From the NCBI GenBank assembly GCA_027021705.1, contig JALUTT010000181.1, positions 11,784 to 75,783 on the forward strand: a DNA stretch of 64,000 nucleotides, given 5' to 3'. Below, one piece after another: positions 15,652 to 55,698 of the stretch. The stretch is from Anaerolineae bacterium (GTDB lineage Bacteria > Chloroflexota > Anaerolineae > S140-20). The position numbers and the translations under genes are program-made. The notes under the pieces were generated by a model, which was given only the letters and a program-made list of their open reading frames with translations, did no database searches and had not been told where the DNA came from. Numbering within the stretch: position 1 is the first letter of the stretch; each line of letters opens with the position of its first letter.

Positions 15652-15658
15652 TGGGTCC

Positions 15659-36859: not shown

Positions 36860-39800
36860 CGTGGCGCACCTCTACGGTCACTTCCGCGTCGTCGGATAAT
36901 TCGCTCAAGGCTCCCCAACCTGTTGCGGGTTGGAGATTGACGGCTTCCAGCGCCTTTCGTAGAGCGCCAAAGCGGGCCTTGAATCTCAGCGGCTCGAAGG
37001 CCGGTGGAACAGGCGGCTTCTCCTCCTCCTGGTGCAACGTCTGGAGCTGCGTCAGTAGTTGGCTCCGCGGCATCTGCCCGGTGATGTACCGGGCGATGGC
37101 CTCCCGGGCTATTGCTTGCGACTCGGACTTCCGCAGCCCCTGGTACAGGTCCCGCATCTCCACGTCCTGCAGCCGGCCGACCATCTCGCGTGCCGCTTGG
37201 AGCATCTCCGGCAGGCTCTGGGGCGGAGCCGAGACCTTGGTCAGCCGGCGGATGCCGGCTTCCGAGGTAGGCTCTGCCAGCGCCCGGTCAATTGTTTCCA
37301 GGATGGCCGCGACCTGCTGCAGAGCCTGCTCCAGCTCTCGCGGGGCGCCCCCCAGCGGCTTGGCCGCTTCCGTCACCGCCTTGCGCAGTTGTCGGTATCC
37401 CTGCTCCTGTTGGGTGAAGAACTGCTGGAGGGAGGCCCAGGCCGCGTCCTGACGACGCACGCCGGGCTGGTCGGGGAGGGAGCCGGCGCCGATGGCCGCG
37501 TAGAAGGCGCTGAAGGCGGCCCACTCCCCGTGGCCCACCCGTTGGCCGGGGGTGAGCAGGTCGTTGCTGTGCAGGCTCAGTTGAGCCGGGTCCTCCACGG
37601 CCAGCGGCCCCCGCCCGCGCACAACCCGCAGGTCGCGAAAGATCACCGTCAGCCGGATCAGGAAATCGGCCAGGAAGGGTTGCAGGCCAAACTCTCTTCC
37701 CAGCCGGTTCTGCAGCTCCTTGACCCGCACGCCCTCCCCGCCTTTCAGGGCCTCCTCGATGGTCTGCACGTAGGGGGAGTTGCCCAGGTCCAGGGCATAG
37801 GCGGTGCCGGCGGGCTTGACGATGCGCAGGGGCATCCCGTAATGGGCAGCGTAATCGTGCGGCGGCCCCACCTCCGGCCCCACCCGGCCCTCTCCCTTGA
37901 CCAGCGCCCGGTAGAGGCTCTCCAACGCCTGGGAGGTGACGTCGGCAGTGAACTCGGGATGTTGACGGAAGCGGGCGTCCAGCAGCCGCGCCCCCAGGTC
38001 CTTGAGAGCCTCCTGCAGCGTGGCCCCGGCCGAAGGGTTCTCGCCGATGCTCACCGAGGCGCTGAGCCGGCCCTGGCTGTAAAGGGAGGCTAGGCCGGCC
38101 AGCAGGCTCTCCCGCAACTGAAAAGCCGCGGCCGTCCAGCTCTCCGTCAGCCGGCGTCCCTCCTCGCCGCTGTACTTCTCGGCGATGTAGGCCGTGCCCG
38201 CCGGGCTCTCGGTGAGGAAGAGGATGCGGGCCAGGTTGTCCAGCTGTTGACGCAGTTGATCGTCGGCCTCCTTGGGGATCCACACCGCGCCCGGCACACC
38301 GTTCTTGGGCGGCTTTGACGGCACAGGGTCGCCGGGGAAGCGGGGGAAGGCGATCCAGACGGTGAACTCCGCCTTGGGGTCGGGCGGGGGAAGGTGGCCG
38401 GCGCCCGTCTCCACGGCTTGGACTGTCCCCGAGCGGTTGGTGCCGCGCCACTTGATGTTCAGCTTGCGCCGGCCCTGCAGCTTGTCGGTGCCGAAGAGGT
38501 TGTTCAGAAGCCCCAACACGGCCTGGCGGCGTTGCTCGGTCACGTCCTGGCTCACCTTGCGCAGCTCCGCCATAGGGTCGAGCCCCAGGCTCAGCTCCAC
38601 CACCACCGCCTCGCCCTCGCGCTTGAAGGTGCCCAGCAGCCGGTCGCAGAGGAGGTCCACGACCTCCTCCAGTTGCTTGCGGGCCAGGATGACCACCTGG
38701 GCGTTGAGCACGGCGGCGTTGAGGGCCGCGATGACGGCGGGGGTCATGCGCCCGCGCAGGGGCGTCCCCTTGTCCGTCAGTTGGCCCAGGATGATGCTTT
38801 CCGCCACGGCCCGCCCTCGGGCGATGCGCTTGGCGTGGCCCAGGAAGTGTTCCTCCAGAAGAGGAACGACTTTGTCACGCATGATCACTTTGGCTGCCTG
38901 CAGCGCGGGCCGGTCTTTGAGCTCTCCCTCGGAGGCTTGCTCGATGAGGTAGTGGAAGGCGCGGTGGTAGGGAATGAGGGTGCCCAACGGCTCATCGGCC
39001 AGGTCGAAGAGCATATCGTACATGACGCTGATGGCGGTGCGTTCGCGGCTCAGCATGTGGGTCACCGAGACCAGGGTGTCCACGATGGCCGGATGGAAGG
39101 GGTAGAGGGCGCGGACGGCTTCCTCAAAGCGCTTGTGGCCGTAGAGTTGATGGAGCACCTCCAGTTGTTCGCCGGGGATCTGGGCCAGACTGGCTTTGAC
39201 CGCTTCGTCCAGGGCTTTCTTGCGCCCCTTTACCGGCTTGAGGACGCGCTTGCCCAGCACCTCGTACAGGTCCACGTCTTGGATGTCTACGTCCCGTCCC
39301 GCGAAGCGCCCCTTGACATTGTCTAGGATGTCCCGGCCCACGTCGCGCACCACGTCCTCCAGGGGGGCGTGGCGCACCACCAGGGCCCAGACGGGGAGGG
39401 CGGCGCCCTCGGCCTCCAGAAGGGCCTTGAGTTCGACCATGGGCCGCGTGCGGTCTTTGGCGTTGATGAGGAAGAGGGTGAGTTCGTCAATGAGGAACGT
39501 GACGGCGGTGAAGCCGTGGTGCTTCAGGTGGGCGGTGATGCGCTTCATGCCCTCGGCCATCTCCACGGCGAAGGCGCCACCGCCCACCTCAGAAGGTAAG
39601 GCGATGTGCGAGGCGATCTCGCGGGCCAGGAGTTCGCGGCCCTGGGGCGTGGCCTTCTGGGCCTCGTACTCCTGGCGGGAGGTCACCACCAGGCTGCGGT
39701 TGAAGAGGGTGTCCCAGAGGGCGGGGGTGTCGGCGGCCAGGTCCTCGAACCATCCGATGACGCGCTGGAAGTAGGTGAGTTCCACGGGGGGCAGGCCCTG

Positions 39801-40232
39801 GCGTTCCAGTTCGCGGGCGACGGCCTCGTAGAGGCCCAGGCGGAAGTCGTCGGGGCGGTCCAGGCTGTTGAAGGGCACCACGAAGACGGGGCGTTTCTCC
39901 AGGATGGCGCGCACGTCATCCGAAAGGCCGGGGATCTCCCGCGCCCAGGCGGCGGACTCCCCGCGCAGGAGCATGCCGGCGAAGGAGAGGAAGTGGGACT
40001 TGCCGGTACCGAAGGAGCCACTGACCCAGACCCCCTGGCCGGGGAAGCCCTTGTCGGCGGACTCGGCCACGCTGCTCACCACGCGCCGCAGCCCCTCGGC
40101 CACGGTGTCGGTGATGACGTACTCCCGGGCGTGGAAGACCTTGCGCTCCTCGTCGTTGATCTCGCCCACCTTGACCACCAGGGGTGGTTTGGTGGGTGGG
40201 ATAGCGATGACGTCACGGATGTGGAGGGTCAT
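36846..40232 (-). CDS. PglY/BrxC-family large ATPase
   Basis: MTLHIRDVIAIP, YVITD, SGSFGTGKSHF, FLIDEL, YPFHP, ERTA; overlaps pglZ by 14 bp. Confidence 0.85.
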   Translation of the reverse strand: MTLHIRDVIAIPPTKPPLVVKVGEINDEERKVFHAREYVITDTVAEGLRRVVSSVAESADKGFPGQGVWVSGSFGTGKSHFLSFAGMLLRGESAAWAREIPGLSDDVRAILEKRPVFVVPFNSLDRPDDFRLGLYEAVARELERQGLPPVELTYFQRVIGWFEDLAADTPALWDTLFNRSLVVTSRQEYEAQKATPQGRELLAREIASHIALPSEVGGGAFAVEMAEGMKRITAHLKHHGFTAVTFLIDELTLFLINAKDRTRPMVELKALLEAEGAALPVWALVVRHAPLEDVVRDVGRDILDNVKGRFAGRDVDIQDVDLYEVLGKRVLKPVKGRKKALDEAVKASLAQIPGEQLEVLHQLYGHKRFEEAVRALYPFHPAIVDTLVSVTHMLSRERTAISVMYDMLFDLADEPLGTLIPYHRAFHYLIEQASEGELKDRPALQAAKVIMRDKVVPLLEEHFLGHAKRIARGRAVAESIILGQLTDKGTPLRGRMTPAVIAALNAAVLNAQVVILARKQLEEVVDLLCDRLLGTFKREGEAVVVELSLGLDPMAELRKVSQDVTEQRRQAVLGLLNNLFGTDKLQGRRKLNIKWRGTNRSGTVQAVETGAGHLPPPDPKAEFTVWIAFPRFPGDPVPSKPPKNGVPGAVWIPKEADDQLRQQLDNLARILFLTESPAGTAYIAEKYSGEEGRRLTESWTAAAFQLRESLLAGLASLYSQGRLSASVSIGENPSAGATLQEALKDLGARLLDARFRQHPEFTADVTSQALESLYRALVKGEGRVGPEVGPPHDYAAHYGMPLRIVKPAGTAYALDLGNSPYVQTIEEALKGGEGVRVKELQNRLGREFGLQPFLADFLIRLTVIFRDLRVVRGRGPLAVEDPAQLSLHSNDLLTPGQRVGHGEWAAFSAFYAAIGAGSLPDQPGVRRQDAAWASLQQFFTQQEQGYRQLRKAVTEAAKPLGGAPRELEQALQQVAAILETIDRALAEPTSEAGIRRLTKVSAPPQSLPEMLQAAREMVGRLQDVEMRDLYQGLRKSESQAIAREAIARYITGQMPRSQLLTQLQTLHQEEEKPPVPPAFEPLRFKARFGALRKALEAVNLQPATGWGALSELSDDAEVTVEVRHDAEA

Positions 40233-40256
40233 GATTGTCACCTCACAACTCACAGA

Positions 40257-43200
40257 TCATAGCCAACTGCGTCTCTCCCATTCCTCTTCCGCCTGTTCGC
40301 GTTCGATCATTGACTGGAGCAAGTCAACCATGCGGCGTGCGAAGAGACGGACACGGAGATACTCATCCTCGAGCCACGGAGATATCGCTTCCAGGCGTTT
40401 TTGATAGAACGATACGAATCCCGAAATAACGCCGGGGGTGCTACTGATCGCTCCTTCAACTTCACCGAGTACCTTCCGATCATCAGTGCGTCGGATGATC
40501 TCACGGCTCAGCTTGTAAAAGGCATCCCCTTCGTTGAATTCCCGTAAGATAGTGGCTGTAGCCCGGAGCTTTTCGACCTCATCGGACTCAACCCACTCCG
40601 TGAGCACCGCGTAGAGAGTCTTATCAAGGCCGCCGGCGATGGCCTTCAGTACATAGGGGGCTTCCCAGCGGAACCAGAAGTTTTCGCGCAGCATCCAATT
40701 GCGAACACGCCGTAGAACGTCAGGGTACTCTTCGCTCTCGCGAATGCTTTCCATAGCTCGTGCAAACTGGAAGGGTACGGGTTCGTATCGTCTCTCTTGG
40801 GCCTCACGTTCATAAGCTATAGTGATGCGCTGCTCGATGAAGTCTATCACCTGCATCGGAGCAATTTGGCCCAATCTGTCCAGGCATCTTTCCACATGAA
40901 AGTCAAGCTGCGGTAATCGTCCAAAGTGCTGAATGATCTCGAGAAAGTCTTGTGGGTCCTCGAACTCCACAGCCCAACCCTCCCCTGTGCTATCCGACCA
41001 TGATAGTACCTCAGCAATGTGCCGCAAGACAGCTTCGTCGCCACGAGCCGCAATAGTTTTGAGAACCTCAACCGCGAGAGCAGGGTTATGTGGTGCGTAT
41101 TGCCGTGTCAGCCACACCATCTCATGATCCAGGGCCGCTGTATTACAAGCCACGAGTTGGCGTAGCATCTCCCAGTCTTCATCCTCCATTTGACGCCAGT
41201 CCACAAACCGGAAGCTATGCGCAGCAGCCAGCCAGAGGATCGCATCGCCGCTGGTGGTCCAATGTTTGAGGTATCTTTGCGCTATCTCGGGGACGCTTTT
41301 CCGCAATCCGGCAATCACGAGCCCAAGGTGATGTTTAAGGGTCAACTCTTCAACTACGGCGCGGTCTATGAGCTGCTGGGCCAGATCAGGATGCTGTTCA
41401 CCCAGACGCTGCAATAGCCGATTGAGCCAAGTAGTACCTGTTTCGCCAACAGTACGCGCTTGATGAGCAATTGTCTCCAAGTCGCGCAAAGCTCGATCAA
41501 AAGTGTCTGGCTTAAGCTGACCGAGGTAACGCTCGACAGCCTCCTGGCGCCGCCGCTCGGCTTCCCGCCAATCCAATTCCTTGTCCGGTTCCTCCGCGTC
41601 CCGGCGATGCCATCCAACCAGCACTCGGTAAAGTTGATAGAGTTGATGGCTGTTAAGCCGCTCACTAAGGCGGTCCAACGCCTCATCTTCATAAGCAGCC
41701 CACCGTCTGGCATGCCAGAGCCATTCCGAGATTGCGTCCAGAACGGGAAGGTCCGCTGTCTCAACCACGTCAGAGAAGAAACGGGCAGTATTCACACAGT
41801 CAGGTCGAAGCCATTCACGGATTTCATCTGGCACGCGAACTATTGAGGGGAAATGTGGGATCGCTCCATCCAGAGCCTGAACAATACGGAGTCGCTCAGC
41901 GGGAGAAGTTGCTTGACGATATGCGTTATAGAGGATGTCTAGCGCCTGCTGTCGGATGTGTCTCAAGGGCTCGGCAGGAGTGAGCAGGCCCCGATGGAGG
42001 ATCACTTTGAAAGGTTCCGTTGGATCGGCCTCAGCGCTATGTAACTCCATCGACAACATTGCTTCTACCAGTTTCAAGGCCAGGTCGAGGTTCTCCGTGA
42101 AATCCTCAGCCAGCCACCGGGGAATGGCTTCCAGAAGCGTCAGTTGCACAGCATAGGGCTTGCGCGGCTTAAATTCGGCAATTTCAGTCAACACTTTGCG
42201 CGCTTCTTCTCTCACATAGGCATAACTCGAATCGTGAGGGCAATATCTGGCAAGTTTATGCAAATAGGTGATAGTATCTCGCAAGGCGCTATACTGGGTG
42301 CGCTTCAGTATTTCGACAGCCTGACCCAACACCATCTCGTGGCTAATCTCATAAGCACCACCCCAAGGGGCACGATAGGTCTCGGGAGGCTGTTCTCTGC
42401 CATCCACGATGCGGGCGACGATCGCCAACGTATCGTCGGCTCTCAGATAAGCCACGTTCTGCAACCAATCGAGAATGGCATAGCGGGCTATGTTGCCTTG
42501 GGTATCGATAGCCCGAGACAGTTCATCGAGTCTGCGACCCAAGAGCACACCTGCTTCACGGGATTCTCCCTTGACCTCTGCCTTGGCCAAGTTAGTCAGG
42601 ATTTCTTTGGCTTTCAGATCGAAGAATGGTTCGATGACTTGTTTTTGGTAGTCGGCGCGTCGAGTTGTGGGGTCAAAGTAGTGGCTCACCAGGATGTGGT
42701 CGGCCAAGACCTCAGAGGCGATCCGAATGGTCTGCCAGTAGCGATCTATTAGGCCTGACGCTTCCAGTCGTGTAACAATGCGTTCTTCTTCAGATGGTGA
42801 GATACCGACGACCTCTTGCACACGTTGGCGGAGAGTGTCGTTGGTCAGCTCAATTGTGCCCAGAGCAGCAAGGATTTCGAGATAGTGCACATATCGATCA
42901 TCGTAGCCAGCCTCGGCCAAGTCACGGATGAGTTCATGAAAGTAGCGGGAAAGCACTTCATCTCTGGTAAGTCTGGTTACATCTTCGCCACGCTGAACCA
43001 GGCGTGCGCCCAATTGGGCGAGCAGCGGGTTACCTTCGGCCACAGCAATCAGTGCCCGACGCGCGTGCTGATCCTCGATATGGTAAGGTTCGCTTTGAAG
43101 CAGACGATCGATGTCAGCATTTGTCAGTGGACCAAGTTCCAAGTAAGCGATTTCATCCCCTGAGATTTGAGGGAAGCGAGCTGCTATATACTCAACGAAT

Positions 43201-43850
43201 ACGCTGCGTGTGCTGAGAATGAGTTTCACCTTACCGGCGTAGTCTGGATTAACCAGTACCTCGCGAAGGTGAGAAAGCGGCGTAAAACGATGGGCGTCAT
43301 CCACGACGATTACGTGCTGTTGGTCCCGATCGAGAGTAGCCAAGTCGTATTCGATGCTTTCAGCTTCAGTGCGGGCGTACCACAGTTTGACATCTTCGGG
43401 AACGATCTCTGACAAGGCGAGTAGCAATCGAGTCTTACCGATACCCCCAGGACCATGAAGAACAATGATACGTTTTTGTTCTTGGAGCCATGCCGCCACT
43501 TGCTGAAGAGTCTGCTCCCGTCCCACCATTTCTCCCCTGTAGCATCCAAGCGCAGTTTGCTCAATCCGCACTGCAAAATCCTGAACTGTGAGTAAGGATC
43601 GAAATCCAGTATGAACGGCCTGCCATATAGCGACTGCATCTGGGCCTTTGATAATACAGACTATGTTGTTATCACCAGTTATAACGACAAGGTCGTGCGC
43701 GTCTCCTCCTAATGCCACAGCCCGATCACCAGTGGCAAGGGTAATCCGTCCTGTTTGAAGGGCTTGGCGCAAGGTGGCGATGTCGGCATCAGTGTAGGTG
43801 CCGGCTGCAATGCGGTCGAGAACACGCTTCAATTCGTTAAACTCCGTCAT
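40257..43850 (-). CDS. Large STAND-type ATPase: short helical (EAD-like) N-terminus, amyloid-like motif, long helical C-terminal sensor
   Basis: HGPGGIGKT, VIVVDDAH, LILSTR, EGNPL; N-terminal LATGDRAVALGGDAHDLVVITGDNNIV. Confidence 0.8.
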   Translation of the reverse strand: MTEFNELKRVLDRIAAGTYTDADIATLRQALQTGRITLATGDRAVALGGDAHDLVVITGDNNIVCIIKGPDAVAIWQAVHTGFRSLLTVQDFAVRIEQTALGCYRGEMVGREQTLQQVAAWLQEQKRIIVLHGPGGIGKTRLLLALSEIVPEDVKLWYARTEAESIEYDLATLDRDQQHVIVVDDAHRFTPLSHLREVLVNPDYAGKVKLILSTRSVFVEYIAARFPQISGDEIAYLELGPLTNADIDRLLQSEPYHIEDQHARRALIAVAEGNPLLAQLGARLVQRGEDVTRLTRDEVLSRYFHELIRDLAEAGYDDRYVHYLEILAALGTIELTNDTLRQRVQEVVGISPSEEERIVTRLEASGLIDRYWQTIRIASEVLADHILVSHYFDPTTRRADYQKQVIEPFFDLKAKEILTNLAKAEVKGESREAGVLLGRRLDELSRAIDTQGNIARYAILDWLQNVAYLRADDTLAIVARIVDGREQPPETYRAPWGGAYEISHEMVLGQAVEILKRTQYSALRDTITYLHKLARYCPHDSSYAYVREEARKVLTEIAEFKPRKPYAVQLTLLEAIPRWLAEDFTENLDLALKLVEAMLSMELHSAEADPTEPFKVILHRGLLTPAEPLRHIRQQALDILYNAYRQATSPAERLRIVQALDGAIPHFPSIVRVPDEIREWLRPDCVNTARFFSDVVETADLPVLDAISEWLWHARRWAAYEDEALDRLSERLNSHQLYQLYRVLVGWHRRDAEEPDKELDWREAERRRQEAVERYLGQLKPDTFDRALRDLETIAHQARTVGETGTTWLNRLLQRLGEQHPDLAQQLIDRAVVEELTLKHHLGLVIAGLRKSVPEIAQRYLKHWTTSGDAILWLAAAHSFRFVDWRQMEDEDWEMLRQLVACNTAALDHEMVWLTRQYAPHNPALAVEVLKTIAARGDEAVLRHIAEVLSWSDSTGEGWAVEFEDPQDFLEIIQHFGRLPQLDFHVERCLDRLGQIAPMQVIDFIEQRITIAYEREAQERRYEPVPFQFARAMESIRESEEYPDVLRRVRNWMLRENFWFRWEAPYVLKAIAGGLDKTLYAVLTEWVESDEVEKLRATATILREFNEGDAFYKLSREIIRRTDDRKVLGEVEGAISSTPGVISGFVSFYQKRLEAISPWLEDEYLRVRLFARRMVDLLQSMIEREQAEEEWERRSWL

Positions 43851-45289
43851 CAGTGGTCCCTCTCTTCACCTGTTTCTCTGGCCAAACGTGCTAGGTTATG
43901 AGACACGGTGTTTGCCAGTTCCTGATCGCCGGCCTGGATAGCTAGCCGTAAAGCCTCAGCGTAGAGAACTCGGGATCGAACGATGTCACCTTCAAATTGA
44001 CAGGCCAAAGCCAAGTTGTTGAGTGCAATGGCTTCACCTTTCCGATTCGCGAGGCTCTGAAAAAGCTGGCGCGCTTGTTCAAGGTTTTCACGGGCCAGAT
44101 GAAACTCTCGTTGGTGCAAATGGATTTCACCGATTGCTGCCAACGTATGAGCCTCGGCGTTCTTGTTGTTCAGCATACGCCATAGACTCAGTGCCTTCTT
44201 CCGATACGTGAGCGCCTCATCGAAGGCGTAGCGGGTCTGATGGATCGCAGCGATATTATCCAGCAGCGTAGCCTGTTCAACTTTGGACCCTAGCCCTTCA
44301 AAGAGTGTTAACGCTCGCTCGTTGTAGTCCAAAGCACGTTCAAAATCACCAATTGCACTGTAGAGGCTGCCCAGATTGGCTAGAGATATTGCTTCCTGCA
44401 AAGGAGCTCCGATCTCACGGAAGATCTCCAGGGCCTGTTCGCTATAAAGCCGGGCCTTATCAAGTTGTCCTAGACACTGCGCCAGTTCACCCAGGTTTCC
44501 CAGAGCAACCGCTTCATGGAAGCGATGACCCGTCTGGACAAAGAGTTCCAGTGCCCTGGAACCATAGGTTAACGCTTTGGAATACCACGCATCTCGTTCA
44601 GCTGATGAAACAACGTCTGCTTTGTTTCGACACGTAATTGCCAGATTGTTTAGTGTCGAGGCTATGGCGACCTGATCATCTTGAGTACGGTATAAAGCCA
44701 GTGCTTGTTCATAGAACGAGATGGCATCGTCCCATTGCTCTAAATCGGCATAAGCCCGGCCCATGTTCTGCAAAACGGTTGCTTCGCCTGAAGAGTCACC
44801 TTCGACACGGAAGAGTTGCAATGCTTGTTCGTAATAGTGCAAGGCTCCAGTTATTTTACCCTCAGCCTGGGATACTAATCCCAGCCCGTTAAGAGCCCTG
44901 GCCTGGCAAGGACGGTCATCCAATTGACGAAAGATGGTCAGCGCCTGCTCATAACATTCACGGGCTCGAGACCACTCGCTCAGTGTATACCACGCAGCAC
45001 CCAGGTTATTCCAGAGAGCACCCACGTCGTGGGTTTGACCCTGGTTTTGCGCGGCAGCGAGCCCGCGTTGATACCATGCAATGGCTTCCCGCCACAAAGC
45101 GCGTTGCTCAAGAAAGGGGCGCACTGCCCATACGTAGGCTAATATTAGCCCTGCATCACCGTTGATGTCGTTCACCCAGGTCCAAGCACGGCGAATTTGC
45201 TCCAATTCACCTTCAAGCCGCTGCCAGTCACCAGGGTTAGATTGGATCAGGGAAAGATAATAGTACGCGTACCGTTCCCAGGCACTCAC
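43850..45289 (-). CDS. TPR protein 3 with N-terminal NLR arm segment
   Basis: ~40-aa repeats (NNLG..Y...A...YEQAL..FR); N-terminus shared with the two upstream TPR genes. Confidence 0.9.
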   Translation of the reverse strand: MSAWERYAYYYLSLIQSNPGDWQRLEGELEQIRRAWTWVNDINGDAGLILAYVWAVRPFLEQRALWREAIAWYQRGLAAAQNQGQTHDVGALWNNLGAAWYTLSEWSRARECYEQALTIFRQLDDRPCQARALNGLGLVSQAEGKITGALHYYEQALQLFRVEGDSSGEATVLQNMGRAYADLEQWDDAISFYEQALALYRTQDDQVAIASTLNNLAITCRNKADVVSSAERDAWYSKALTYGSRALELFVQTGHRFHEAVALGNLGELAQCLGQLDKARLYSEQALEIFREIGAPLQEAISLANLGSLYSAIGDFERALDYNERALTLFEGLGSKVEQATLLDNIAAIHQTRYAFDEALTYRKKALSLWRMLNNKNAEAHTLAAIGEIHLHQREFHLARENLEQARQLFQSLANRKGEAIALNNLALACQFEGDIVRSRVLYAEALRLAIQAGDQELANTVSHNLARLARETGEERDH

Positions 45290-45291
45290 GT

Positions 45292-46815
45292 TTAACCGGT
45301 CGTTGATATCTGCTCCAAACGTTCTCGAAGTTTGGTCAGGTGAAAAGCATGTTGCTCTACCTCAGGATCACCGACTGATCGTTCGTAATCCACAACAATT
45401 TGGAGAAGTTCCACTGCACGCGGTAAATCGCCTGCGCGTTCGTATAACCGGCTTAGGTCCCAGGTGTAGATCGCTTCCCCTCCCTTATCTCCGATCTCGC
45501 GAGCGATATGTCGTGCCTGTTCATAGTACTCTAATGCCTTCTGGATATCTCCCAACTGCCAGTAGACCAATCCCAGCCGGCTCAACCGGATGCTTTCTCC
45601 CCATCTATCGCCTATGTCACGAGCAATCTTCAAGGCTCGTTGGTAATATTCGATAGCCTTGGACGTGTCGCCCAAATCCTGCAGAATGCGGCCCAGATTG
45701 CTGAGCCACGCCCCCTCGTTTTGCCGGTCACCCACACGGTGAGCAATTTCCAGGGCTTGTTCGTAACAGTGTGTAGCTTCTTGCCACTCGCCCAGGTCAG
45801 CGTACGCCATTCCCAGGATACCCAAGCGAGCCCCTTCTGCTTGTAAATCTCCAATCTCCCTGGCAATCTCCACAGCACGTTTAACGTACTCAATCGCCCT
45901 GTCCGGATCGCCCAGAACAAGATACGTTCGGCCCAGGTTACTCAGCCACGTCCCCTCACTCAGCCGGTCACCAATGTCACGGGCTATCTGCAACGCCTGC
46001 TTGAAACATTCAATAGCCTTTTGCCAGTCTCCCAGGTCAAGCCAGCCACGCCCCAGATTGCCCAACCAGACCCCCTCATTTCGACGGTCACCCGTGTCAC
46101 GGGCAAACCGAAGAGCCCGCTCATAGTACGAGATAGCCGTTCGCACTTCTCCCAGGTCAGCATAGGCGAGACCCAGATTCCCCAGATCAGCTCCTTCGCT
46201 GCGCCGATCCCCTATCTCTCGATCAATCGCCAATGCTTGTTCGAAGCAGGAGATGGCTCGTTGGGTCTCTCCCAAGCTCAGGAGGGCCAACCCAAGATTA
46301 CCTAGCCAGATAGATTCCTGTTTGCGGTTCTGTAACTCGTGGTGAATCGTCAGGGCCGCCTCAAAGTGCCGGATAGCTTTGTCAATCTCCCCAATGTCTA
46401 AGTAAACCAGCCCCAAGTTGCCCAGACGGCTACCTTCTGCGCCCCGATCACCAACATCCTGTGCAATTCGCAGAGCCTGTTCATAACACTCGATGGCCTT
46501 GCGTGCTTCGCCAAGGCGGTAATACGCTAATCCCAGGTTCGCCAACATTACACCCGCTACCTGATTACCGTTCGGAAGTGTTCTTGCCACCACCAAGCCT
46601 CGCTCATTCCAAGCGATGGCCTCCAGCCACAGTCCGCGCATCTCCTGAAAGGGGAAGAAAGCTTGAACGTAAGCCAGGACCAAATCCTTGTTCTCCTCTT
46701 TGCTCACCCAGGCCCAGGCACGACGAATCTGGTCGAGCTCACGTTCGACCGCTTGCCAATCGCCGTTTTGAGTCACTGCCAGATAGTAGCGCGCGTGCCG
46801 CTCACGGGGGCTCAT
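45292..46815 (-). CDS. TPR protein 2 with N-terminal NLR arm segment
   Basis: Regular GDRxxEGxxLGNLG repeats; start ATG 46815 overlaps the upstream stop (ATGA). Confidence 0.92.
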   Translation of the reverse strand: MSPRERHARYYLAVTQNGDWQAVERELDQIRRAWAWVSKEENKDLVLAYVQAFFPFQEMRGLWLEAIAWNERGLVVARTLPNGNQVAGVMLANLGLAYYRLGEARKAIECYEQALRIAQDVGDRGAEGSRLGNLGLVYLDIGEIDKAIRHFEAALTIHHELQNRKQESIWLGNLGLALLSLGETQRAISCFEQALAIDREIGDRRSEGADLGNLGLAYADLGEVRTAISYYERALRFARDTGDRRNEGVWLGNLGRGWLDLGDWQKAIECFKQALQIARDIGDRLSEGTWLSNLGRTYLVLGDPDRAIEYVKRAVEIAREIGDLQAEGARLGILGMAYADLGEWQEATHCYEQALEIAHRVGDRQNEGAWLSNLGRILQDLGDTSKAIEYYQRALKIARDIGDRWGESIRLSRLGLVYWQLGDIQKALEYYEQARHIAREIGDKGGEAIYTWDLSRLYERAGDLPRAVELLQIVVDYERSVGDPEVEQHAFHLTKLRERLEQISTTG

Positions 46816-48236
46816 CTCGTCCTTCCCCTGCGCATGAAACGCCGTGCTATTTGTGCAAGACGAGCAAGAGGTTTCTGGATGTTTCGCTTCGCTGCCGGCC
46901 CCGTTTGTTCCTGAGCTGGCCACTCAGGCGATTCATTGACCTGTATCAAGGTGCTCTCTCGTTCCAGAACGAGACTGCGATTCCGGCGAATAACCGCGCT
47001 AAGGTGTTCATCTCCGATTTCTTGAGCAAGGCTCAAAGCCTGTTCATAATACATTACCGCCCGATGTTCCTTGCCTAGACCTTCGGCAAGATTGCCCATT
47101 GCCGCCAGCAAGCGCGCTTCCATCTGCTTCTGTCCTATTTCCCGGCTTATGCGCAACGCTTGCTCGTAGTATCGAGCTGCCCTTTCGAGTTTGCCCAGAC
47201 GATGATAAGCCTGTCCAAGGCTCGCAAGCCGACCACCTTCGACAACCCTGTTGCCTATGTGGCGTGCAGCAACCAGGTTCTGCTCAAAACACTGAATAGC
47301 ACGCTCAATCTCACCTGTTTCCAGGTAAATATCACCAAGACCGCCTAATAGATCGCTCTCTTGAATCCTGTCACCCATTAAACGCGCCAAATTCAATGCA
47401 TCCTCAATAAGTTCTACCGCCTTTGAAAGGTTACCTTCTATCCGAGCAATACTTGCCAGGCTATACAAAAACCCTATCTCCAGGTCCTGATCTCCTGCCA
47501 AGAGAGCGTGCTTCAATCCTTTTCGGTATGTTTGGCGTGCTTTGCGCCAATTGCCAACATCGAGGAGTGCATTCCCTCTCATCTGGAGTGCAAGCGCGAT
47601 AGATCTATGATCACGCTGCTTAGAAGCAAGAACATACATCTGTCTTTGCAGTCTTTCCGCCTGACGTAGATTACCCAGGCGACGGAAGGCGCTTTCCATG
47701 CTCATCAAGGCAACAAACTCTGTCTGCCAGTCTTTGGCGTTCTGCGCCAGAATCTGTGCACGTTTGTAGCATTCAAACGCTTTTGTTGTATCCCCCATCG
47801 CCAAATAGGCACTACCAAGCCGCAAAAGTATCAGGGATACAATACGGTTCCCGTGTTGCTCTAGAGACACGGATGAGAGGAGCGAATAGGCTCGCTCACA
47901 GCAATCGGCAACCTGCTTTGAATCGCCCAGGTTGTCGTGGACTTCACTGAGTCGCAAAAGAGAGAAAAGTTCGGCGATTTTGTCCTGTTTGCTCCGCGTT
48001 ACCTCTAGCTCGCGCTGTGTCCATTCAAGCGCCTCTTTCCACAGACCGCGCAGTTGTAAGTGCGGATAGAACGTTTCTACGTAATCCGATAGCAGTTGCG
48101 GATCCCCTTGAGCAGCAACCCAATTCCACGCATGCCTTATTTGCGGCCATTCGGCGTCGAACCATTGCCAATCCTTAAGATGGGCTTTGGCATATTCCAG
48201 GTAAAATCGAGCGTGTCGTTCCAGCACCTTGCTCAT
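46812..48236 (-). CDS. TPR protein 1 with N-terminal NLR arm segment
   Basis: TPR repeats; ATGA-coupled to the NB-ARC gene. Confidence 0.9.
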   Translation of the reverse strand: MSKVLERHARFYLEYAKAHLKDWQWFDAEWPQIRHAWNWVAAQGDPQLLSDYVETFYPHLQLRGLWKEALEWTQRELEVTRSKQDKIAELFSLLRLSEVHDNLGDSKQVADCCERAYSLLSSVSLEQHGNRIVSLILLRLGSAYLAMGDTTKAFECYKRAQILAQNAKDWQTEFVALMSMESAFRRLGNLRQAERLQRQMYVLASKQRDHRSIALALQMRGNALLDVGNWRKARQTYRKGLKHALLAGDQDLEIGFLYSLASIARIEGNLSKAVELIEDALNLARLMGDRIQESDLLGGLGDIYLETGEIERAIQCFEQNLVAARHIGNRVVEGGRLASLGQAYHRLGKLERAARYYEQALRISREIGQKQMEARLLAAMGNLAEGLGKEHRAVMYYEQALSLAQEIGDEHLSAVIRRNRSLVLERESTLIQVNESPEWPAQEQTGPAAKRNIQKPLARLAQIARRFMRRGRTR

Positions 48237-49381
48237 AGTCCCATCTTTTCCATCATTTCCGCCGCATAGTCGGCCAGCAGCGCATGCATCCAGTAGCGCT
48301 CGCCCCGACGCTCCACCAGACCGCGTTGGATAAAGCGCGAGATGGTCGCTTCAGCTTCTTCCACCGAACATTCCCACACATGAGCAGCAGCCTTGATCTC
48401 CCACGTAAGTGGCTCGCCGCCGAAGACGGCCAGCATGGCAAAGCGTTCTTGGTCGGTCTTGCTCAGCCGCTCCACGCTCATCCCCAGAATCGCCTGAAGG
48501 GAGACGGGTTGGTCTTCGGCCAGACCTAGGCGTCCTTCCGCCTGGAGCAGCTGCAAACGGGCTTCCCGGTGCTCCATGAGCTCATCCAGCAGCCGTTGCA
48601 TCCGCGTTGGCACGTCAGCCTCGCTGGCTAGCAACCGCCCTGCCAAGGTCAGAGCCAAAGGCAGGAACTCTAGCCGTTCACAGAGACGCATTGCGTTTTG
48701 CTCATCAGCGGCAACAGCTTCGGGTGCCAAGCGGCGTAATAGTGCCAGAGCAGCCTCCGGTTTCAGCACATCTACCCGCAGTGTCCGTCCGCGTGTGGCC
48801 AATGTATAAGCAATGGGTGCCTCACGGGTGGTAAGGACCGTACGACAACGAGGACCGGCGACCATGAAGTACTGACCGTGGGTTACCTCCCAAACATCAT
48901 CCACAATCAGCAGCACGCGTCGGTGATAAAGAACGGCCCGGAGACGATCACGACAGGCATTCTCATCGCGCTCTGGTAGCAAATCTACCCCAAGGGCCCG
49001 ACCCCACCCATCGAGGAGGATGCGAATGGTTGGGTTAGGCCCCAAGGCTACCCAAAGCACACCATCGGGGAAGAGCTTGGGAATGATCTCTAACCGTCCT
49101 AAGGCGATGGCTAGGGTTGTCTTGCCGATGCCGCCCATCCCACGCAGAGCTACTGGGGGGATATCAGTCGCCTGCTCATCATCAAGAGCCAGCAGGTCGA
49201 ACAAGCGAGTCAGGTCCTCGTCACGGCCGAGAACACCCTGGGGTGGGAGCGGCGGCGTCATAAACGGTGGCGGCGTTCGCGTTGCTGGCATACCGACGGT
49301 AGCAGCCGCTTGGTCACCGATAGCTAGGCCGTAGACGGTGCCATGAATCGTCACCTTGTGCCGATCGAGTTCGTTGCTCAT
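48233..49381 (-). CDS. Stand-alone NB-ARC protein with N-terminal amyloid-like motif and no sensor domain
   Basis: GMGGIGKT, LLIVDDVW, LTTR, FLPLAL (GLPL), YWMHALL (MHD); stops about 15 aa after MHD; GAGGAG RBS. Confidence 0.9.
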   Translation of the reverse strand: MSNELDRHKVTIHGTVYGLAIGDQAAATVGMPATRTPPPFMTPPLPPQGVLGRDEDLTRLFDLLALDDEQATDIPPVALRGMGGIGKTTLAIALGRLEIIPKLFPDGVLWVALGPNPTIRILLDGWGRALGVDLLPERDENACRDRLRAVLYHRRVLLIVDDVWEVTHGQYFMVAGPRCRTVLTTREAPIAYTLATRGRTLRVDVLKPEAALALLRRLAPEAVAADEQNAMRLCERLEFLPLALTLAGRLLASEADVPTRMQRLLDELMEHREARLQLLQAEGRLGLAEDQPVSLQAILGMSVERLSKTDQERFAMLAVFGGEPLTWEIKAAAHVWECSVEEAEATISRFIQRGLVERRGERYWMHALLADYAAEMMEKMGL

Positions 49382-49437
49382 AGACTTCTCCTCATGGCCG
49401 TTCCACTAGCCGCCCAGCGGTTTTGCCTATGGAACGC

Positions 49438-49980
49438 TCAGGATTCGCTTGCTTCTCCAGATGCTGGTGGTTCAGCTCCTTCTACGTTCACATTAACCAG
49501 TGCCTGGTTGCCAAGAGCCATCCCCCTGGCTTCGCCGACATTCACGCTGTATTTCCCCTGTTGCACCACGTTCTGGTCACCGGTCACGATGATGCTGCCT
49601 TCAATCTTTCTAGCTGCCACGCTGTGTTCACCGCTAGCAATTACGGTTACGCCCATAGCCTTTGCCTTTTCCCACAATTGGGCCACTTCAGCAGCCAGTT
49701 CTTCGTCCTCGGACAGGATTTTCCTGAGTTGCAGGCGCAGGGCGGCTTGGGCGTCCCCATCTTTCGGCGCTGCGGCCACATCCTGCACTGCTTCCCGTGC
49801 CGCTGGCTTGGCCTCCACCTTGGAGCGCAGTTTGCCCCACAGCGCCTTGGCTTTCTCCCAGGCGTCGCCACCCAGTTTCTTGCCTGCTTCCTCAGTCGCT
49901 CTTTCACCTGCCTTGAGCAGGTAAGGCAAGAAAGGGGTAAGAAAAGCGGCTACGTCCTTCGCCAGCATTGCTATGTCCAT
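49438..49980 (-). CDS. Small helical (Bell/HeLo-like) protein with two C-terminal amyloid-like motifs
   Basis: Hydrophobic N-terminal helix (AAFLTPFLPYLL), ~105-aa helical domain, then a G/V/I/N/Q-rich tail; AAGGAG RBS. Confidence 0.7.
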   Translation of the reverse strand: MDIAMLAKDVAAFLTPFLPYLLKAGERATEEAGKKLGGDAWEKAKALWGKLRSKVEAKPAAREAVQDVAAAPKDGDAQAALRLQLRKILSEDEELAAEVAQLWEKAKAMGVTVIASGEHSVAARKIEGSIIVTGDQNVVQQGKYSVNVGEARGMALGNQALVNVNVEGAEPPASGEASES

Positions 49981-49995
49981 CGTAAGCTCCTTCTG

Positions 49996-52900
49996 TTATC
50001 CCATCACCACATACGGATACGGCTCCACGTCCCCGATGATGCTCCGCAGCCCCTCCCGTACCTCCGGATCCTCGATGTCCGGCGCCTCTTCCGGCAAAGT
50101 GATGAGCCGGGCCACCCAGCGGTAGAAGGGCGTTTTGTCCTGGGCCTCTTCCGCCAGGGTGAGGAAGATGTTGGCCTGGGCCTCCGGGCTCCACCCCGTC
50201 CAGCCGTACAAATCCCGATTGACGCCGTCGAAGCGGAAGAAGCGCTCGTGGAGGACGTCTACCTTCTTGGGCTTGCGGCCCACCAGCACTTTCTCCTCGT
50301 CGAAAGGGATGGGCCGGCAGTCCCAGTCCATGCACTCGCGCACGAACTGCTCCGCCGAAATGGGCCGGCCGCCGTAGTAGACCGCCCGCAGGGGCTCGAA
50401 CTTGGGGTTTCGCGCCAGAATACCGGCGACCTCTGCCGGGGTGAGCGGCCGCTCCCGCAACGGCGGCTGGGCGGCGAAGATGTCTTCGATGAGGTCGCAG
50501 ATGTAGTCGCGGATTTCGAACTGCATCTCTTTATGCCAATCGAAATCGTGAAGGAGATCCGAGGATTCCCAATCTGCTAATGCCGAGACGACCTCCTCTT
50601 CAAGTTGATAAATGTCTCGCACGCAGCCATCGACTTCTCTTTGTAGTTCCACCCACCTTTGAGCAAGTTGCTCAAGATTGCCGCGATATGCTTGCTGGCG
50701 AGTTTGTAAGTCGGCTAGTGACTCGAAATGCACGTCTCGTATCAGGTGATACGGATGTAACGCGTTGATCTGCTCCACGAGGCTTGTCATTTCTTGTGAA
50801 AGTGCTATCAGTGTCTCGGCTGCAGTTCCATCTGGCACTGGGATCGGGAACCCTTTGATGTGATGGCCATAGATGTCGAAATACTGCTGGCGCACCCGGC
50901 TTGCCGTTCTCGCCACGTAGAAAGCAAACAAAGACGAATTCATCAACGCTGCCAAATGGAAAGTAAGTTCCCCTTCATCCAATTTCGGGTACGCAACCTG
51001 GGCTGGATGATCCACCAAGAATCGGCCTATACTGTCACCGAAGGCATGTGGGCGCAACACCACGCTGGGCCAGGCAATCTTCGGCACGCCCAGGCGGGCG
51101 TTGGTCTGATGGAGCCGGAAAAAGGGGATGCCAGCGTCCTTGTAAGTCATCCGTTCCCAGGTGGCTCGCGCCCAAAGATATTCCTTGTACCTCAGTAGGT
51201 AACGGTAAGCGTTGGGATACCGTTCGGCGAAATCGGCGATAAGTTCGCCTGTCTCCTTATCATGGGTGTAAAGCACATACGTCTGCTCCTTCTTCCGGTT
51301 CCCGTGCCAAGTGACGGTCCAGTTGCGGATGTTCTTCCCCCGCAGGCAGGGGATGCAGATTTCCCGCTCCAGCTTGTTCCGGCGGATGAAGCTCTCCGTG
51401 ATGTAGTCGCAGAAGACCGGGTCGGCGTTGGTCATGAAGTCCACACCGATGCGCGCGTAGTCGGCCAGGGTCTTGTCGGAGGCGGCCCGGATTTTGCCCA
51501 GCAGGTCGCGGGCGCTGCGGCGCAGGGTCCAGGGATGAGAGCGGAAGTGCTCCTGCCGCTCCCAATAGTGACCGGCATAGTCCTTGAAGACGGCACCCCC
51601 TCCCCGGCCCTCCCACCCCCCTCCGGCTCCCCCCTGAGAGGGGGGAGTGAGCAGGCAGTGCAGGGCGGCCCATGTCTCCTCTCGCGTCCGGCCCGCCGGC
51701 TGGTAGGTGGCCAGCACCTCCACCGGCGCATCGGCGGGCACGGGGGCATCGTCCTCCGGCCGCTGCACCACGATGAGGGCGGGGTAGGCGCCGGCCTCGA
51801 AGACCTGGGCGTCGGTCAGGTCGGCGAAGAAGAGCAGGCGGTAACGCTCGCCCGCCAGCAGCGCGGCCAGCTTCTTGCCATAGGCCTGCTTGGCGAACTT
51901 GCCGCTGGTGATGTAGCCCAGGTAGCCACCGGGCACCAGCAGTTCCAGCCCCCGTTCGACAAAGGGTACCGAGAGGTCAAAGTTGCCACTGGCTGTCTTG
52001 TAGTTTGTGCGCAGGTACTGGACGAAGTCCACCCGCTCCCAACTGCCGTTCACCGGTGCGACCACCTCGGCCCCCTGACGGTGGATGCGCACGTAGGGCG
52101 GGTTGGCGTTGACCACGTGGAAGCCCTTGGCCAGGGCGTCCCGCAGGTCCACCCGCAGGTGGGTTAGCTCCCGGCCGTACCAGCGGGCCACAGGGTCCGT
52201 CTCCCGGCGGGGCGGCCGGCCCCACTCGAAGGTGGGCAGCGTTTCCTGCTGCGGCGGCTTGATCAGGCTGTTGGCCGTGTAGACGTTGAAGGTGATGTCC
52301 TCGCCCCACTTTGAGACCCCCCTCCGGCTCCCCCCTACAAGGGGGGAGGGAGAGGCCAGGCGAACGCCTTCCAGGAAGAGGCGGAAGAGGGTGATGCGGG
52401 TGGCGAACTCGGAGATGTCCACGCCGAAGAGGTTGTTCTCCACGATGCGCTCGAAGCGCTCCAGGGGCGTCAGGTCCGGGTCCTCGCGGGCCAGGTGCGC
52501 GTCCAGGCGGCGGTAGGCACGCACCAGGAAGTGGCCGGTGCCGCAGGCGGGGTCCAGGTAGCGCAGCTCGTACACGCCGAACTCCCACACCGCCGGCTCC
52601 AGGGTGCGCTCCAGCAGGAAGTCAATGATGAAGTCAGGGGTCGTGTAGTAGCCCAGCCGCTTGCGCTCCTCGGCGTCCATCAGGTGCTCGTAGAGGTCGC
52701 CCAGGGCGCGGGTATCCATCTCCCGCAGGGCGGGCAGATGGCCCACGGTGTCCAGCAGGTCGCGGGCCACCTCGTCGGAGGGCGGGATGAGCTCGTAGCC
52801 GGTCTCCTTGAAGAGGTCGTAGGCCACGGGCAGGTAGGCCAGGTCGCGCACCGCGTACTCCAGGTAGTCGGCCCAGGTGAGGCGGGGCGCCAGGTCGCGC

Positions 52901-53316: not shown

Positions 53317-53403
53317 GGTCACACCGCCCCCTTCAAGCGCTTGATTTCCGGCTTGAGCGCCTTCGCCAGGGAGACCATTAGACATAACCGCTCTTCCCCT
53401 ACA

Positions 53404-53616
53404 CTACCGTTCATGCAGGTCCTCTCGGCACCAGGTGCGTCTGCCAAGCACAGGACCTAGCTCGAGCCAATGCTCGATGAACGCCCGTTCCTCTTCCCAG
53501 ACCCGCAACTTAGACCCGAGGGAGCGTAAGGCATGGGGATGTTGCTCAATAGCATAACGAATGCTCTCGGCTTCTTTCTCGTGATTGCCGGGCGTTGTCC
53601 TTGCATCGTTGGTCAT
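53404..53616 (-). CDS. Small hypothetical protein, possibly an orphan antitoxin remnant
   Basis: 70 aa ending RTWCREDLHER; starts 5 nt after the upstream stop. Confidence 0.4.
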   Translation of the reverse strand: MTNDARTTPGNHEKEAESIRYAIEQHPHALRSLGSKLRVWEEERAFIEHWLELGPVLGRRTWCREDLHER

Positions 53617-53620
53617 TGCT

Positions 53621-54106
53621 TCATCGCTCCCAATCGAGTTCCAACACCGTGCAGTTGTCCGTCGGATAGACCGGCCCATCTTCCAGCAGGCGCAGGCCGC
53701 CGGCCACCCGGGCCGCTTTCACCGAAACGACGATTACCCCCTCGCCACTGAGGGGATACAGCAGCGCAGAGGGGTTGAGGTCGGGGAAGGCGTACAGTAC
53801 CTCTGTGTCGCACACCACCGCGGGGGAGGTCTCCTGGGCACGCTTCACCAGGACGCCGGCCAGAGCCTTGCCCACCGCCCCCAGCCGGCCCTCCCGCTCG
53901 GCCTGGACCAGCCGCTCCCAGCGGTCGCCGAAGCGCTCCACCAGCAGCCCCATCACCGAGATGGGGTCCGCGTCCAAGGCGTGGGCTATCCGGCGCGCCG
54001 GGTCAACGGGAGTGTAGCTCACCGGCAAATGTAGGTAGATCAGGTTCGTGACTCGCGGATGCTCCACCCGCCGGCGGATTTCGGCGATGGCTTGATCGAG
54101 TTGCAT
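53621..54106 (-). CDS. BrxF/BrxB-like degenerate P-loop accessory protein
   Basis: 161 aa; VVCDTEVLY...LNPSALLYPLS...IVVSV resembles the BrxF pattern as I recall it; no Walker A; lies next to the brxA-like gene. Confidence 0.55.
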   Translation of the reverse strand: MQLDQAIAEIRRRVEHPRVTNLIYLHLPVSYTPVDPARRIAHALDADPISVMGLLVERFGDRWERLVQAEREGRLGAVGKALAGVLVKRAQETSPAVVCDTEVLYAFPDLNPSALLYPLSGEGVIVVSVKAARVAGGLRLLEDGPVYPTDNCTVLELDWER

Positions 54107-54122
54107 GGCGCTCTACGACTCC

Positions 54123-55645: not shown

Positions 55646-55698
55646 GATACCCTCACCCAATATGATGGTTGCGGAAGCTAGATGCACCTGTTAGGCAA

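Follow-up and report, generated by a model that had tools for sequence, protein, structure and literature searches.

A six-gene NLR-type cassette nested between pglX and brxC of an atypical BREX operon in an Anaerolineae bacterium

Introduction

Avs and bNACHT proteins are single-chain STAND NTPases with repeat sensors that abort infection, and EAD-coupled STAND/NTPase conflict systems were reportedly the subject of an eLife paper in 2020 (PMC7159879). In Bell-domain/NLR gene pairs, the two partners share amyloid signalling motifs (BASS; preprint 10.1101/2020.01.06.895854), and Bab/Agp has been presented as an abortive-infection pair of the Bell type (preprint 10.1101/2024.11.07.622273). For EAD10, an adaptor role has been described, in which it brings effectors to NTPase cores (eLife 2021, PMC8195603). 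For the bacteriophage exclusion (BREX) systems, BrxU/GmrSD is embedded in BREX on plasmid pEFER (PMC8565348), and 'auxiliary and backup nuclease effectors' have been catalogued (PMC12839542); the cargo published there consists of nucleases, namely restriction endonuclease, HNH/GmrSD, OLD-ABC/TOPRIM (PARIS-like), HEPN, PIN and Schlafen types. Restriction-modification genes are also described as inserting with long target duplication (PMC2853133). Here, we describe a six-gene cassette of the NLR type that lies between pglX and brxC (also called pglY) in a BREX operon of an Anaerolineae bacterium (assembly GCA_027021705.1, contig JALUTT010000181.1, positions 11,784 to 75,783 of the forward strand). 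This stretch of 64,000 nt is referred to as the window hereafter, and all coordinates are those of the whole window in forward-strand numbering. An earlier reading of the window, made from its letters alone (the sequence-only reading), had stated that BREX loci accept inserted backup defences, and this is indeed in print (PMC12839542, PMC8565348).

Results

Limits, composition and transcription signals of the cassette

All of the operon and cassette genes are on the minus strand in the order up1-up2-up3-pglX-cassette-brxC/pglY-pglZ-brxL (Table 1), and the nested, co-oriented position between pglX and pglY that the sequence-only reading had described was confirmed. The span that it had given, 40232-49996, was right to within 2 nt, the exact block being 40234-49997. 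At one junction, the pglX stop codon TAA (49998-49996) is followed by 15 nt including GGAG and then by the first cassette ATG at 49980; at the other, the last cassette stop codon (40259-40257) is followed by 24 nt including GAGGTGA and then by the brxC ATG at 40232. Both spacers agree with the earlier description, in which the cassette began 15 nt after pglX with its own ribosome-binding site and ended about 25 nt before pglY.

A clear contrast in composition is seen between the cassette and its flanks. The GC content in 1-kb windows is 0.50-0.59 in the cassette versus 0.64-0.71 in brxC/pglZ, and the GC content at third codon positions (GC3) of the six cassette genes is, in order, 0.59, 0.62, 0.50, 0.58, 0.51 and 0.55, versus 0.82 in pglX, 0.87 in brxC and 0.87 in pglZ. 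These values bear out the remark that the cassette is more AT-rich than the flanking BREX genes. The genome is a bin of 183 contigs (5.19 Mb, 66% GC, 4.5% estimated contamination); the whole block has 54.2% GC against a genome mean of 66.1% (standard deviation 2.45) for windows of 9,764 nt, and a GC content this low or lower is found in only 6 of 3,957 such windows, all six in one other region. The cassette is single-copy, as a blastn search against the genome gave the cassette itself and internal TPR (tetratricopeptide repeat) matches only. Neither a direct nor an inverted repeat of ≥10 nt occurs at its ends, and a duplicate of the 5′ end of brxC (a brxC 5′ stub, see below) was found nowhere in this genome. 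The cassette looks like a horizontally acquired, compositionally foreign block whose insertion or replacement was clean at the stop/start boundary. As a separate observation, the only other regions of about 10 kb with a cassette-like low GC content (0.51-0.55) are C132:~74000-90000 and C108:~47000-61000.

The contigs of four public runs (X1-X4) were compared with the region 36500-53500. X1 is probably the source sample and is not independent of the assembly. In this run, the cassette is contained in one contig of 9,979 nt (40204-50182) that spans both junctions with 0 differences; its depth is 60.8, versus 62-69 in the flanks. Another X1 contig, with a depth of 8.79, joins 40233 to 49998 and skips exactly 9,764 nt, and a contig with a depth of 8.36 shows single-nucleotide polymorphisms near the end of pglX (50059-50107). 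Should the two sides be joined directly, pglX would terminate two codons further on, at a TGA that overlaps the brxC ATG, and this would be an intact coupled junction like that of an empty related locus (L020, see below). One sample appears to contain both strains that carry the block and strains that lack it. The X1 joints 39126>52689 and 39916>52990 have short sides or do not fall at a gene boundary, and they were treated as cross-matches from other organisms.

The other runs come from other studies. X2 and X3 hold 40225-49279 at about 90-95% identity (for example, a contig of 5,683 nt with 326 differences in X2), and X4 holds 40146-49279 at the same level of identity. In all three, the matching ends at 49279, around codon 34 of the NB-ARC gene and just past its N-terminal motif. 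Exchange there thus involves the effector gene together with the N-terminal motif of NB-ARC, whereas the NB-ARC core, TPR1-3 and the STAND gene travel together. It was also observed that short X4 contigs with depths of 68-96 match 40026-40204 (the brxC 5′ end) and 49713-50107 (the pglX 3′ end and the start of the small-protein gene) at about 85-95% identity, whereas the X4 depth elsewhere in the stretch is about 0-15. An abundant relative in X4 shares just these junction pieces.

In a consensus scan of 39000-56500, no promoter-like or terminator-like site was found on the coding (minus) strand within the cassette, and the only minus-strand promoter-like sites, 55911-55883 and 55727-55699, are located upstream of up1. 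The earlier statement that no internal promoter or terminator is evident therefore stands for the matches on the coding strand, but it is weakly supported, because the scan is a sigma-70 pattern match only and its outcome was not above the shuffled expectation. The short spacers on both sides, together with this result, suggest that the cassette is probably transcribed from the BREX promoter together with the BREX genes.

Cargo at the pglX-brxC junction of related loci

No close BrxC was found among 40 near-relative genomes (best, 28% identity on a short contig), and therefore the comparison rests on scans of sequence collections. These scans, made with a BrxC alignment, provided 20 loci, of which L016 is the window's own contig. 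BrxC is at least 33% identical in 11 loci, and 6 of these have readable DNA upstream of brxC (33-91% identity). Cargo other than the window's was found directly upstream of brxC in five of the six readable loci, and the remaining one is empty. L013 (BrxC identity, 59%) carries up1-up2-up3-pglX, three brxC 5′ stubs, AbiEi and AbiEii. L011 (91%) carries an NB-ARC gene (30% identical to the window's), a TPR gene, a HEAT protein, a brxC stub, AbiEi and AbiEii; L017 (85%), a TPR protein, a stub, AbiEi and AbiEii; and L012 (78%), a DEAD/HIRAN helicase, a stub and AbiEi. In L015 (41%), the pglX end is followed by a small open reading frame (ORF) and HicA, and the next brxC is fragmented. In the empty locus, L020 (33%), pglX and brxC are 2 nt apart. 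The recurrence of cargo at this position, by which the sequence-only reading had proposed to check the nesting, is therefore supported, and on these sequences the pglX-brxC junction can be regarded as a recurrent cargo slot of this BREX clade, which holds AbiE, HicA or nothing in relatives. The features of defence cargo nested in BREX were found for the cassette: it is a non-BREX module between core genes, it is co-oriented with them, and the content of its position is variable among relatives.

The brxC 5′ stubs start at the brxC ATG, are 110-165 nt long and occur ahead of the AbiE inserts (L013:5586-6067, L011:4031-4243, L012:3457-3591 and L017:1047-1178). In L013, the three stubs are separated by an element of about 100 nt with three GATGAGATT repeats. 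The helicase of L012, a Caldilineae relative, is a DEAD/DEAH protein of 975 aa with a C-terminal HIRAN domain (L012:438-3365), and its gene lies directly upstream of the brxC stub.

Several loci are outside the six-locus count: L014, L018 and L019 (less than 300 nt upstream of brxC, or internal fragments), L022 and L023 (a pglX C-terminus and then brxC pieces without the 5′ part), and L021 and L024-L030 (BrxC identity of 22-28%, type-2-like; looked at in part). Between pglX and pglY, a DUF5615 ORF is found in L026, weak DUF433 ORFs are found in L028/L029, and ORFs that belong to no clear family span 4.3 kb in L027.

Proteins of the cassette and their shared motifs

The first cassette gene encodes a small protein (Table 1) whose layout is an N-terminal six-helix bundle, then motif A (aa ~109-139, EAD10-type), and then motif B (aa ~141-172). 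An AlphaFold2 model based on a 45-sequence alignment has six helices at aa 3-108, mostly with a predicted local distance difference test (pLDDT) value of >90, and a disordered tail; in the monomer, aa 112-180 are without secondary structure at pLDDT 47-70. The EAD10 match of this protein has 20.7 bits, under the cut-off of 24.1, and in Pfam searches EAD10 was found at E ≤ 0.01 in 5 of 45 family members. With 1,757 representatives at E ≤ 1e-3, most of them 135-160 aa long, this family is a large one. The family consensus of motif A is A.G.RSVA.GG...GS.I.TGD.N; the extra motif B occurs in the window protein and a subset of relatives. Elsewhere, the N-domain is fused to NB-ARC-TPR proteins (P0188, P0211 and P0260), to NACHT or NACHT-FGE-sulfatase proteins (P0186, P0268 and P0284), to a HEAT-repeat protein (P0279) and to a CHAT protein (P0296). 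Foldseek gave no match at E ≤ 0.001 for the small protein against PDB. The coiled-coil domain of ZAR1 aligned with it at Z 4.4, within the noise for helical bundles, and its Atlas neighbour cluster contains 26% HetE-N members (score 0.93), which we take as a lead only.

Between the genes of the small protein and NB-ARC, the 56-nt spacer (49382-49437) holds a 7-bp inverted repeat, CGTTCCA ... TGGAACG, with a loop of about 24 nt. By eye, no T-run follows it. It is possibly an element that sets the ratio of effector to sensor.

The NB-ARC protein has no repeats; a conserved N-terminal motif of about 25 aa is followed by a Pro-rich linker, and among the matches listed the motif is kept in about 50 relatives. 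At E ≤ 1e-15, 513 relatives were found, many of them with 381-384 aa and 65-90% identity, mostly labelled Anaerolineae, Caldilineaceae or Chloroflexi. An NLR in the sense of an NB-ARC and a C-terminal TPR region in one chain is not present here: the TPRs are encoded by three separate, translationally coupled genes, TPR1-3, which share the same N-terminal head of about 35 aa. To judge from the sequences compared, this split form, an NB-ARC core without TPR plus three TPR genes, is conserved in Chloroflexota. The last gene encodes a STAND NTPase that carries EAD10 above the gathering score, a P-loop of the nSTAND5 type and a long helical C-terminal region, and the start of its gene shares 1 nt with the TPR3 stop. 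Its homologues at E ≤ 1e-10 form at least 116 clusters (best identity, 90%) in Chloroflexi and filamentous cyanobacteria, and the N-terminus differs by member, being EAD10, DUF4062, trypsin or Mrr, and is thus swappable. Among 401 sampled genomes of the phylum, the STAND protein was found in 5 and the NB-ARC protein in 3, both counts including this genome and being too few for statistics on linkage with BREX.

Table 1 Positions of the BREX operon genes and of the cassette in the window
Feature	Product	Position	Strand	Matches and remarks
up1	ORF	54917-55687	-	No match in Pfam, PADLOC or NCBIfam
up2	ORF	54123-54974	-	No match in Pfam, PADLOC or NCBIfam
up3	ORF	53621-54106	-	No match in Pfam, PADLOC or NCBIfam
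pglX	Adenine methyltransferase, 1129 aa	49996-53385	-	PADLOC PglX 7.7e-83; Pfam Eco57I 1.4e-22, TaqI_C 1.6e-4
Inserted cassette	Six genes, 9,764 nt	40234-49997	-	Junctions, composition, X1 contig skipping the block
Small protein	180 aa	49438-49980	-	Pfam EAD10 4.2e-4 at aa 132-162
NB-ARC	STAND NTPase without repeats, 382 aa	48233-49381	-	Pfam NB-ARC 1.6e-24
TPR1	474 aa	46812-48236	-	Pfam TPR_12 3e-32, TPR_MalT 1.1e-21; start overlaps NB-ARC stop (ATGA)
TPR2	507 aa from ATG 46815	45292-46815	-	Pfam TPR_12 9.1e-78; start overlaps TPR1 stop (ATGA)
TPR3	479 aa	43850-45289	-	Pfam TPR_12 1.9e-54; GTG start 2 nt past TPR2 stop
EAD10-STAND	NTPase, 1197 aa	40257-43850	-	Pfam EAD10 2.6e-9 at aa 1-54, nSTAND_NTPase5 3.4e-6
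brxC/pglY	P-loop ATPase, 1128 aa from ATG 40232	36846-40232	-	PADLOC BrxC 6.9e-62
pglZ	821 aa	34394-36859	-	PADLOC PglZ 1.7e-36; Pfam PglZ 1e-8
brxL	Lon-like, 519 aa from ATG 34365	32806-34365	-	Pfam BrxL_ATPase 4e-103; PADLOC BrxL 2e-111

Two hidden Markov models (HMMs) were built from relatives only and used to search the complete set of 67,536 stop-to-stop ORFs in the genome. The motif-A HMM found the small protein at 1.5e-14 and the N-terminus of the STAND protein at 2e-8; the HMM of the NB-ARC N-terminal motif found the NB-ARC protein at 6.2e-16. A small helical protein thus has a C-terminal motif, motif A, that matches the N-terminus of a co-oriented NLR, and EAD10 occurs both on the NTPase and on a separately encoded partner, the small-protein match being under the cut-off. 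About ten further proteins of the genome carry motif A, with about eight other large ones matched by the motif-A HMM; most are 890-2,136 aa long and have the motif close to the N-terminus (contigs C120:92074-92556, C77, C144, C162, C36, C175, C178, C73, C117 and C88); one of them is a helical protein of 161 aa. The genome may hold a network of motif-A sensors and effectors.

The same module in other genomes

Homologous modules were found in two other Chloroflexota genomes. In G271 (L040 = G271:C75:158500-178400, 10970-16558), an NB-ARC gene is followed by exactly three coupled TPR genes. The N-domain of the small protein (50% identical) is fused there, via a copy of the NB-ARC-type motif, to an NB-ARC that is 75% identical to the window's, and this fusion is independent 'Rosetta stone' support for the link between the small protein and NB-ARC. 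The second TPR gene of G271 has 55% identity with TPR2. In G388 (L041 = G388:C51:17000-36900, 11298-17483), a 66%-identical NB-ARC is likewise followed by three coupled TPR genes, and the TPR genes of both genomes all start with the same head of about 35 aa. These arrangements point to 'one NTPase core, three sensor subunits' as a conserved system. No match to pglX, brxC, pglZ or brxL was found in the 15-20 kb examined around the two modules. A C5-methyltransferase-like ORF, judged from the sequence pattern alone, lies near the G271 module.

Host BREX operon

The core set of BREX is present in the operon according to PADLOC and Pfam: a PglX-type methyltransferase, a BrxC/PglY ATPase and PglZ, with the pglZ start overlapping the brxC end. 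PglX, PglY and PglZ score best with the BREX-2 models of NCBIfam, all three under the curated cut-offs: the best model for PglX is BREX-2 PglX (1.2e-67), and the brxC product matched BREX-2 PglY at 3.9e-30 and BrxC at 6.7e-26, both under cut-off. BrxL passes the NCBIfam cut-off (TIGR02688, 1.3e-128). No BrxA or BrxB model matched up1-up3 in the sequence models of Pfam, PADLOC and NCBIfam, and the order pglX-brxC-pglZ-brxL is not that of BREX type 1 (brxA-brxB-brxC-pglX-pglZ-brxL). PglW, BrxD and BrxHI were not seen among the operon ORFs scanned with Pfam and PADLOC, to which this search was confined. Because of the BREX-2-like PglX/PglY/PglZ, the BrxL above the cut-off and the lack of a BrxA/BrxB match to up1-up3, the host system can be classified, by its protein matches, as an atypical BREX, a type-2-like PglX/PglY/PglZ set plus BrxL. 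The genes up1-up3 are kept ahead of pglX in related loci (tblastn): their identity is 55-59% in L013, and in L020, which has the same seven-gene order without an insert, up2 has 36% identity in the same order before pglX.

A further mosaic patch, distinct from the cassette, lies within pglX at 50536-51285 (aa 701-950); it corresponds to the TaqI_C-like specificity region and is hypervariable. Its GC3 is 0.46-0.67 versus 0.84-0.96 in the remainder of pglX, and its identity with the L013 PglX is 20-46% per 50 aa, whereas most other blocks have 60-88%. The minor-strain joints and contig breaks in X1 fall within this region. This suggests that the target-recognition domain is exchanged between strains.

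Discussion

The reading that we favour, and hold to be fairly probable, is that the cassette is a horizontally acquired, self-contained STAND/NLR module that occupies a recurrent cargo slot between pglX and brxC and acts as a second, abortive layer in its own right. Other small defence modules occur at this junction in related bacteria, and the cassette is therefore most likely interchangeable defence cargo rather than a guard dedicated to BREX. Of the two roles that the sequence-only reading had offered, the 'second-line abortive layer co-expressed with BREX' is, on the sequence evidence, the most likely. In the mechanism that we propose, there would be two sensors, one composed of the NB-ARC protein and the three separate TPR proteins, and another being the 1197-aa EAD10-STAND protein. 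Each sensor would detect a phage cue and oligomerise, and its N-terminal motif would engage the matching C-terminal motif of the 180-aa protein: motif A would pair with the STAND protein, and motif B, weakly, with NB-ARC. The N-terminal bundle of the small protein would then execute cell death or growth arrest, as in the Bell/NLR amyloid-signalling pairs and the EAD-coupled conflict systems. From the motif sharing, the G271 fusion, the Bell/NLR and Bab/Agp layout and the adaptor role of EAD10, we infer that two sensors activate one executioner by motif pairing, with abortive infection as the likely outcome and, by analogy, an anti-phage role of the cassette.

Several results weigh against this reading. 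No anti-phage activity of this NB-ARC/TPR or STAND family was reported in the literature searched. The N-domain of the small protein has no Pfam family in 45 of 45 members, and 0 of 45 match any death-effector family; in a wide VIA-align search, the best Z was 5.4, and nothing stood above the helical-bundle background. Because the N-domain has neither a Pfam family nor a significant match to a solved structure, the small protein is 'Bell-like' by architecture only. The pairing of motif B is weak as well: the NB-ARC motif HMM matched aa 141-172 of the small protein at E = 0.04, rank 3 of 67,536. As for the locus, pglX is visible upstream in L013, L015 and L020 only, as the contigs of L011, L012 and L017 end first. 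The shorter side of the X1 joint has 28 letters, and the comparison cannot tell whether other letters lie between the two sides; therefore, the minor variant may carry other cargo instead of being empty. Finally, the search for promoters and terminators used crude sigma-70 and intrinsic-terminator patterns on a Chloroflexota-like genome, and overall its outcome was not above the shuffled expectation.

Other explanations were weighed against the same evidence. It is hardly credible that the low-GC block was joined chimerically during metagenome assembly or binning and that no cell carries it inside the BREX operon. The 183-contig bin with its 4.5% estimated contamination and the abrupt composition jump would fit such an artefact, but both junctions coincide with gene boundaries and leave the stop codon of pglX and the ribosome-binding site and start codon of brxC intact, one X1 contig (from reads that are probably of the same sample) spans 40204-50182 with 0 differences at a flank-like depth, and other inserts occur at the same point in relatives. 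It is also unlikely that the cassette does not act against phages and instead serves a multicellular, filamentous bacterium in programmed cell death or kin recognition, a role once proposed for Bell/NLR pairs, its place in the BREX operon being due only to the tolerance of the junction to insertions. The other cargo at the slot is of the defence or toxin-antitoxin type, the Bell-type pair Bab/Agp is reported to give phage resistance by abortive infection (10.1101/2024.11.07.622273), and the G271 module lies near the C5-methyltransferase-like ORF, itself a sequence pattern only; nevertheless, all three protein families have most of their relatives in Chloroflexi and filamentous cyanobacteria, and Bell/NLR pairs and EAD systems are described as enriched in multicellular bacteria, with their function left open, in the 2020 preprint (10.1101/2020.01.06.895854).

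The other role offered by the sequence-only reading, that the NLRs guard BREX, was not supported. Under this explanation, the NLR sensors would watch BREX proteins or phage anti-BREX inhibitors (Ocr-like) and kill the cell when BREX is disabled, so that the nesting reflects coupling; we consider it quite unlikely. The tight co-operonic placement with 15-nt and 24-nt spacers is in its favour, as are the STAND/repeat-type genes upstream of the brxC stub in L011 and L017, which are the closest two among the relatives with readable DNA; moreover, a proposed role of PARIS-like modules at BREX loci is to counter Ocr (PMC12839542). However, the same slot holds unrelated cargo (AbiE, HicA) or nothing, and the NLR genes of L011 are about 30% identical though its BrxC is 91% identical, which indicates cargo turnover and not co-evolution. 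Homologous NB-ARC/three-TPR modules are found in G271 and G388 without a BREX gene within 15-20 kb, and the STAND family, whose N-domains are exchangeable, is widespread in cyanobacteria and Chloroflexi; the counts among the 401 sampled genomes (STAND in five, NB-ARC in three, this genome included) also stand against the guard. A bolder combination appears no easier to accept: the brxC 5′ end would serve as a recombination arm for swapping abortive modules, and one NB-ARC core, three interchangeable TPR sensors and a second STAND sensor would be connected by two tandem motifs to one executioner, the hub being translated from the BREX message, reading BREX failure or inhibition and so guarding BREX.

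Layered immunity by nesting in BREX has been documented for nuclease cargo, and this case adds a multi-gene module of the NLR type that is probably abortive. The slot turns over fast, as a 91%-identical BrxC is flanked by NLR genes of about 30% identity, and it provides a natural example of rapid cargo turnover at a BREX junction. An NB-ARC core with three TPR proteins and a fused or motif-linked executioner would be a tractable model for coupling several sensors to one effector. To our knowledge, a split NLR with a motif-linked or fused executioner is uncharacterised so far.

The nested arrangement itself is already known, and the cargo type, a multi-gene NLR module, is new to the literature searched. 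Like the published nested cargo of BREX, the cassette is a co-oriented module between core genes, occupies a defined position at which cargo recurs and can be read as an extra or backup layer; unlike it, this is a six-gene, 9.8-kb module without a recognisable nuclease, and the host has a type-2-like PglX/PglY/PglZ set with BrxL. 'NLR' and 'AbiE' have 0 occurrences in the main text of PMC12839542 (the supplementary tables are outside this count), and in the literature searched we found neither a paper on NB-ARC, bNACHT or Avs genes inside a BREX operon nor NLR/Bell-type multi-gene BREX cargo. The 110-165-nt brxC 5′ duplicates that precede AbiE in L011, L012, L013 and L017 resemble insertion with long target duplication, whereas the window cassette has no brxC stub and no terminal repeat of ≥10 nt.

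Similarities to the EAD-coupled systems are the presence of Pfam EAD10 both on the N-terminus of the STAND NTPase and on a separate small protein, and the exchangeable N-terminal domains. In those systems, however, EAD10 is described mainly with TPR-GreA/B-C-PIN proteins, and the account of EAD10 in PMC8195603 does not mention nesting in BREX. The likeness to the Bell/NLR pairs is one of architecture: the small helical protein starts with a helix that is hydrophobic, its residue 2 is acidic, its disordered C-terminal motif of about 25-30 aa recurs at the N-terminus of a co-oriented NB-ARC/STAND protein, and the same N-domain is also fused directly to NLRs and is found in Chloroflexi and cyanobacteria. 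The cassette differs from these pairs in that one effector appears with two different motifs for two sensors, in that the NB-ARC sensor is split from its TPR part (three separate genes), and in that the motif-A partner is five genes away and not adjacent. In Avs and bNACHT, effector, NTPase and sensor are combined in one chain, whereas in the cassette described here they are encoded by separate genes.

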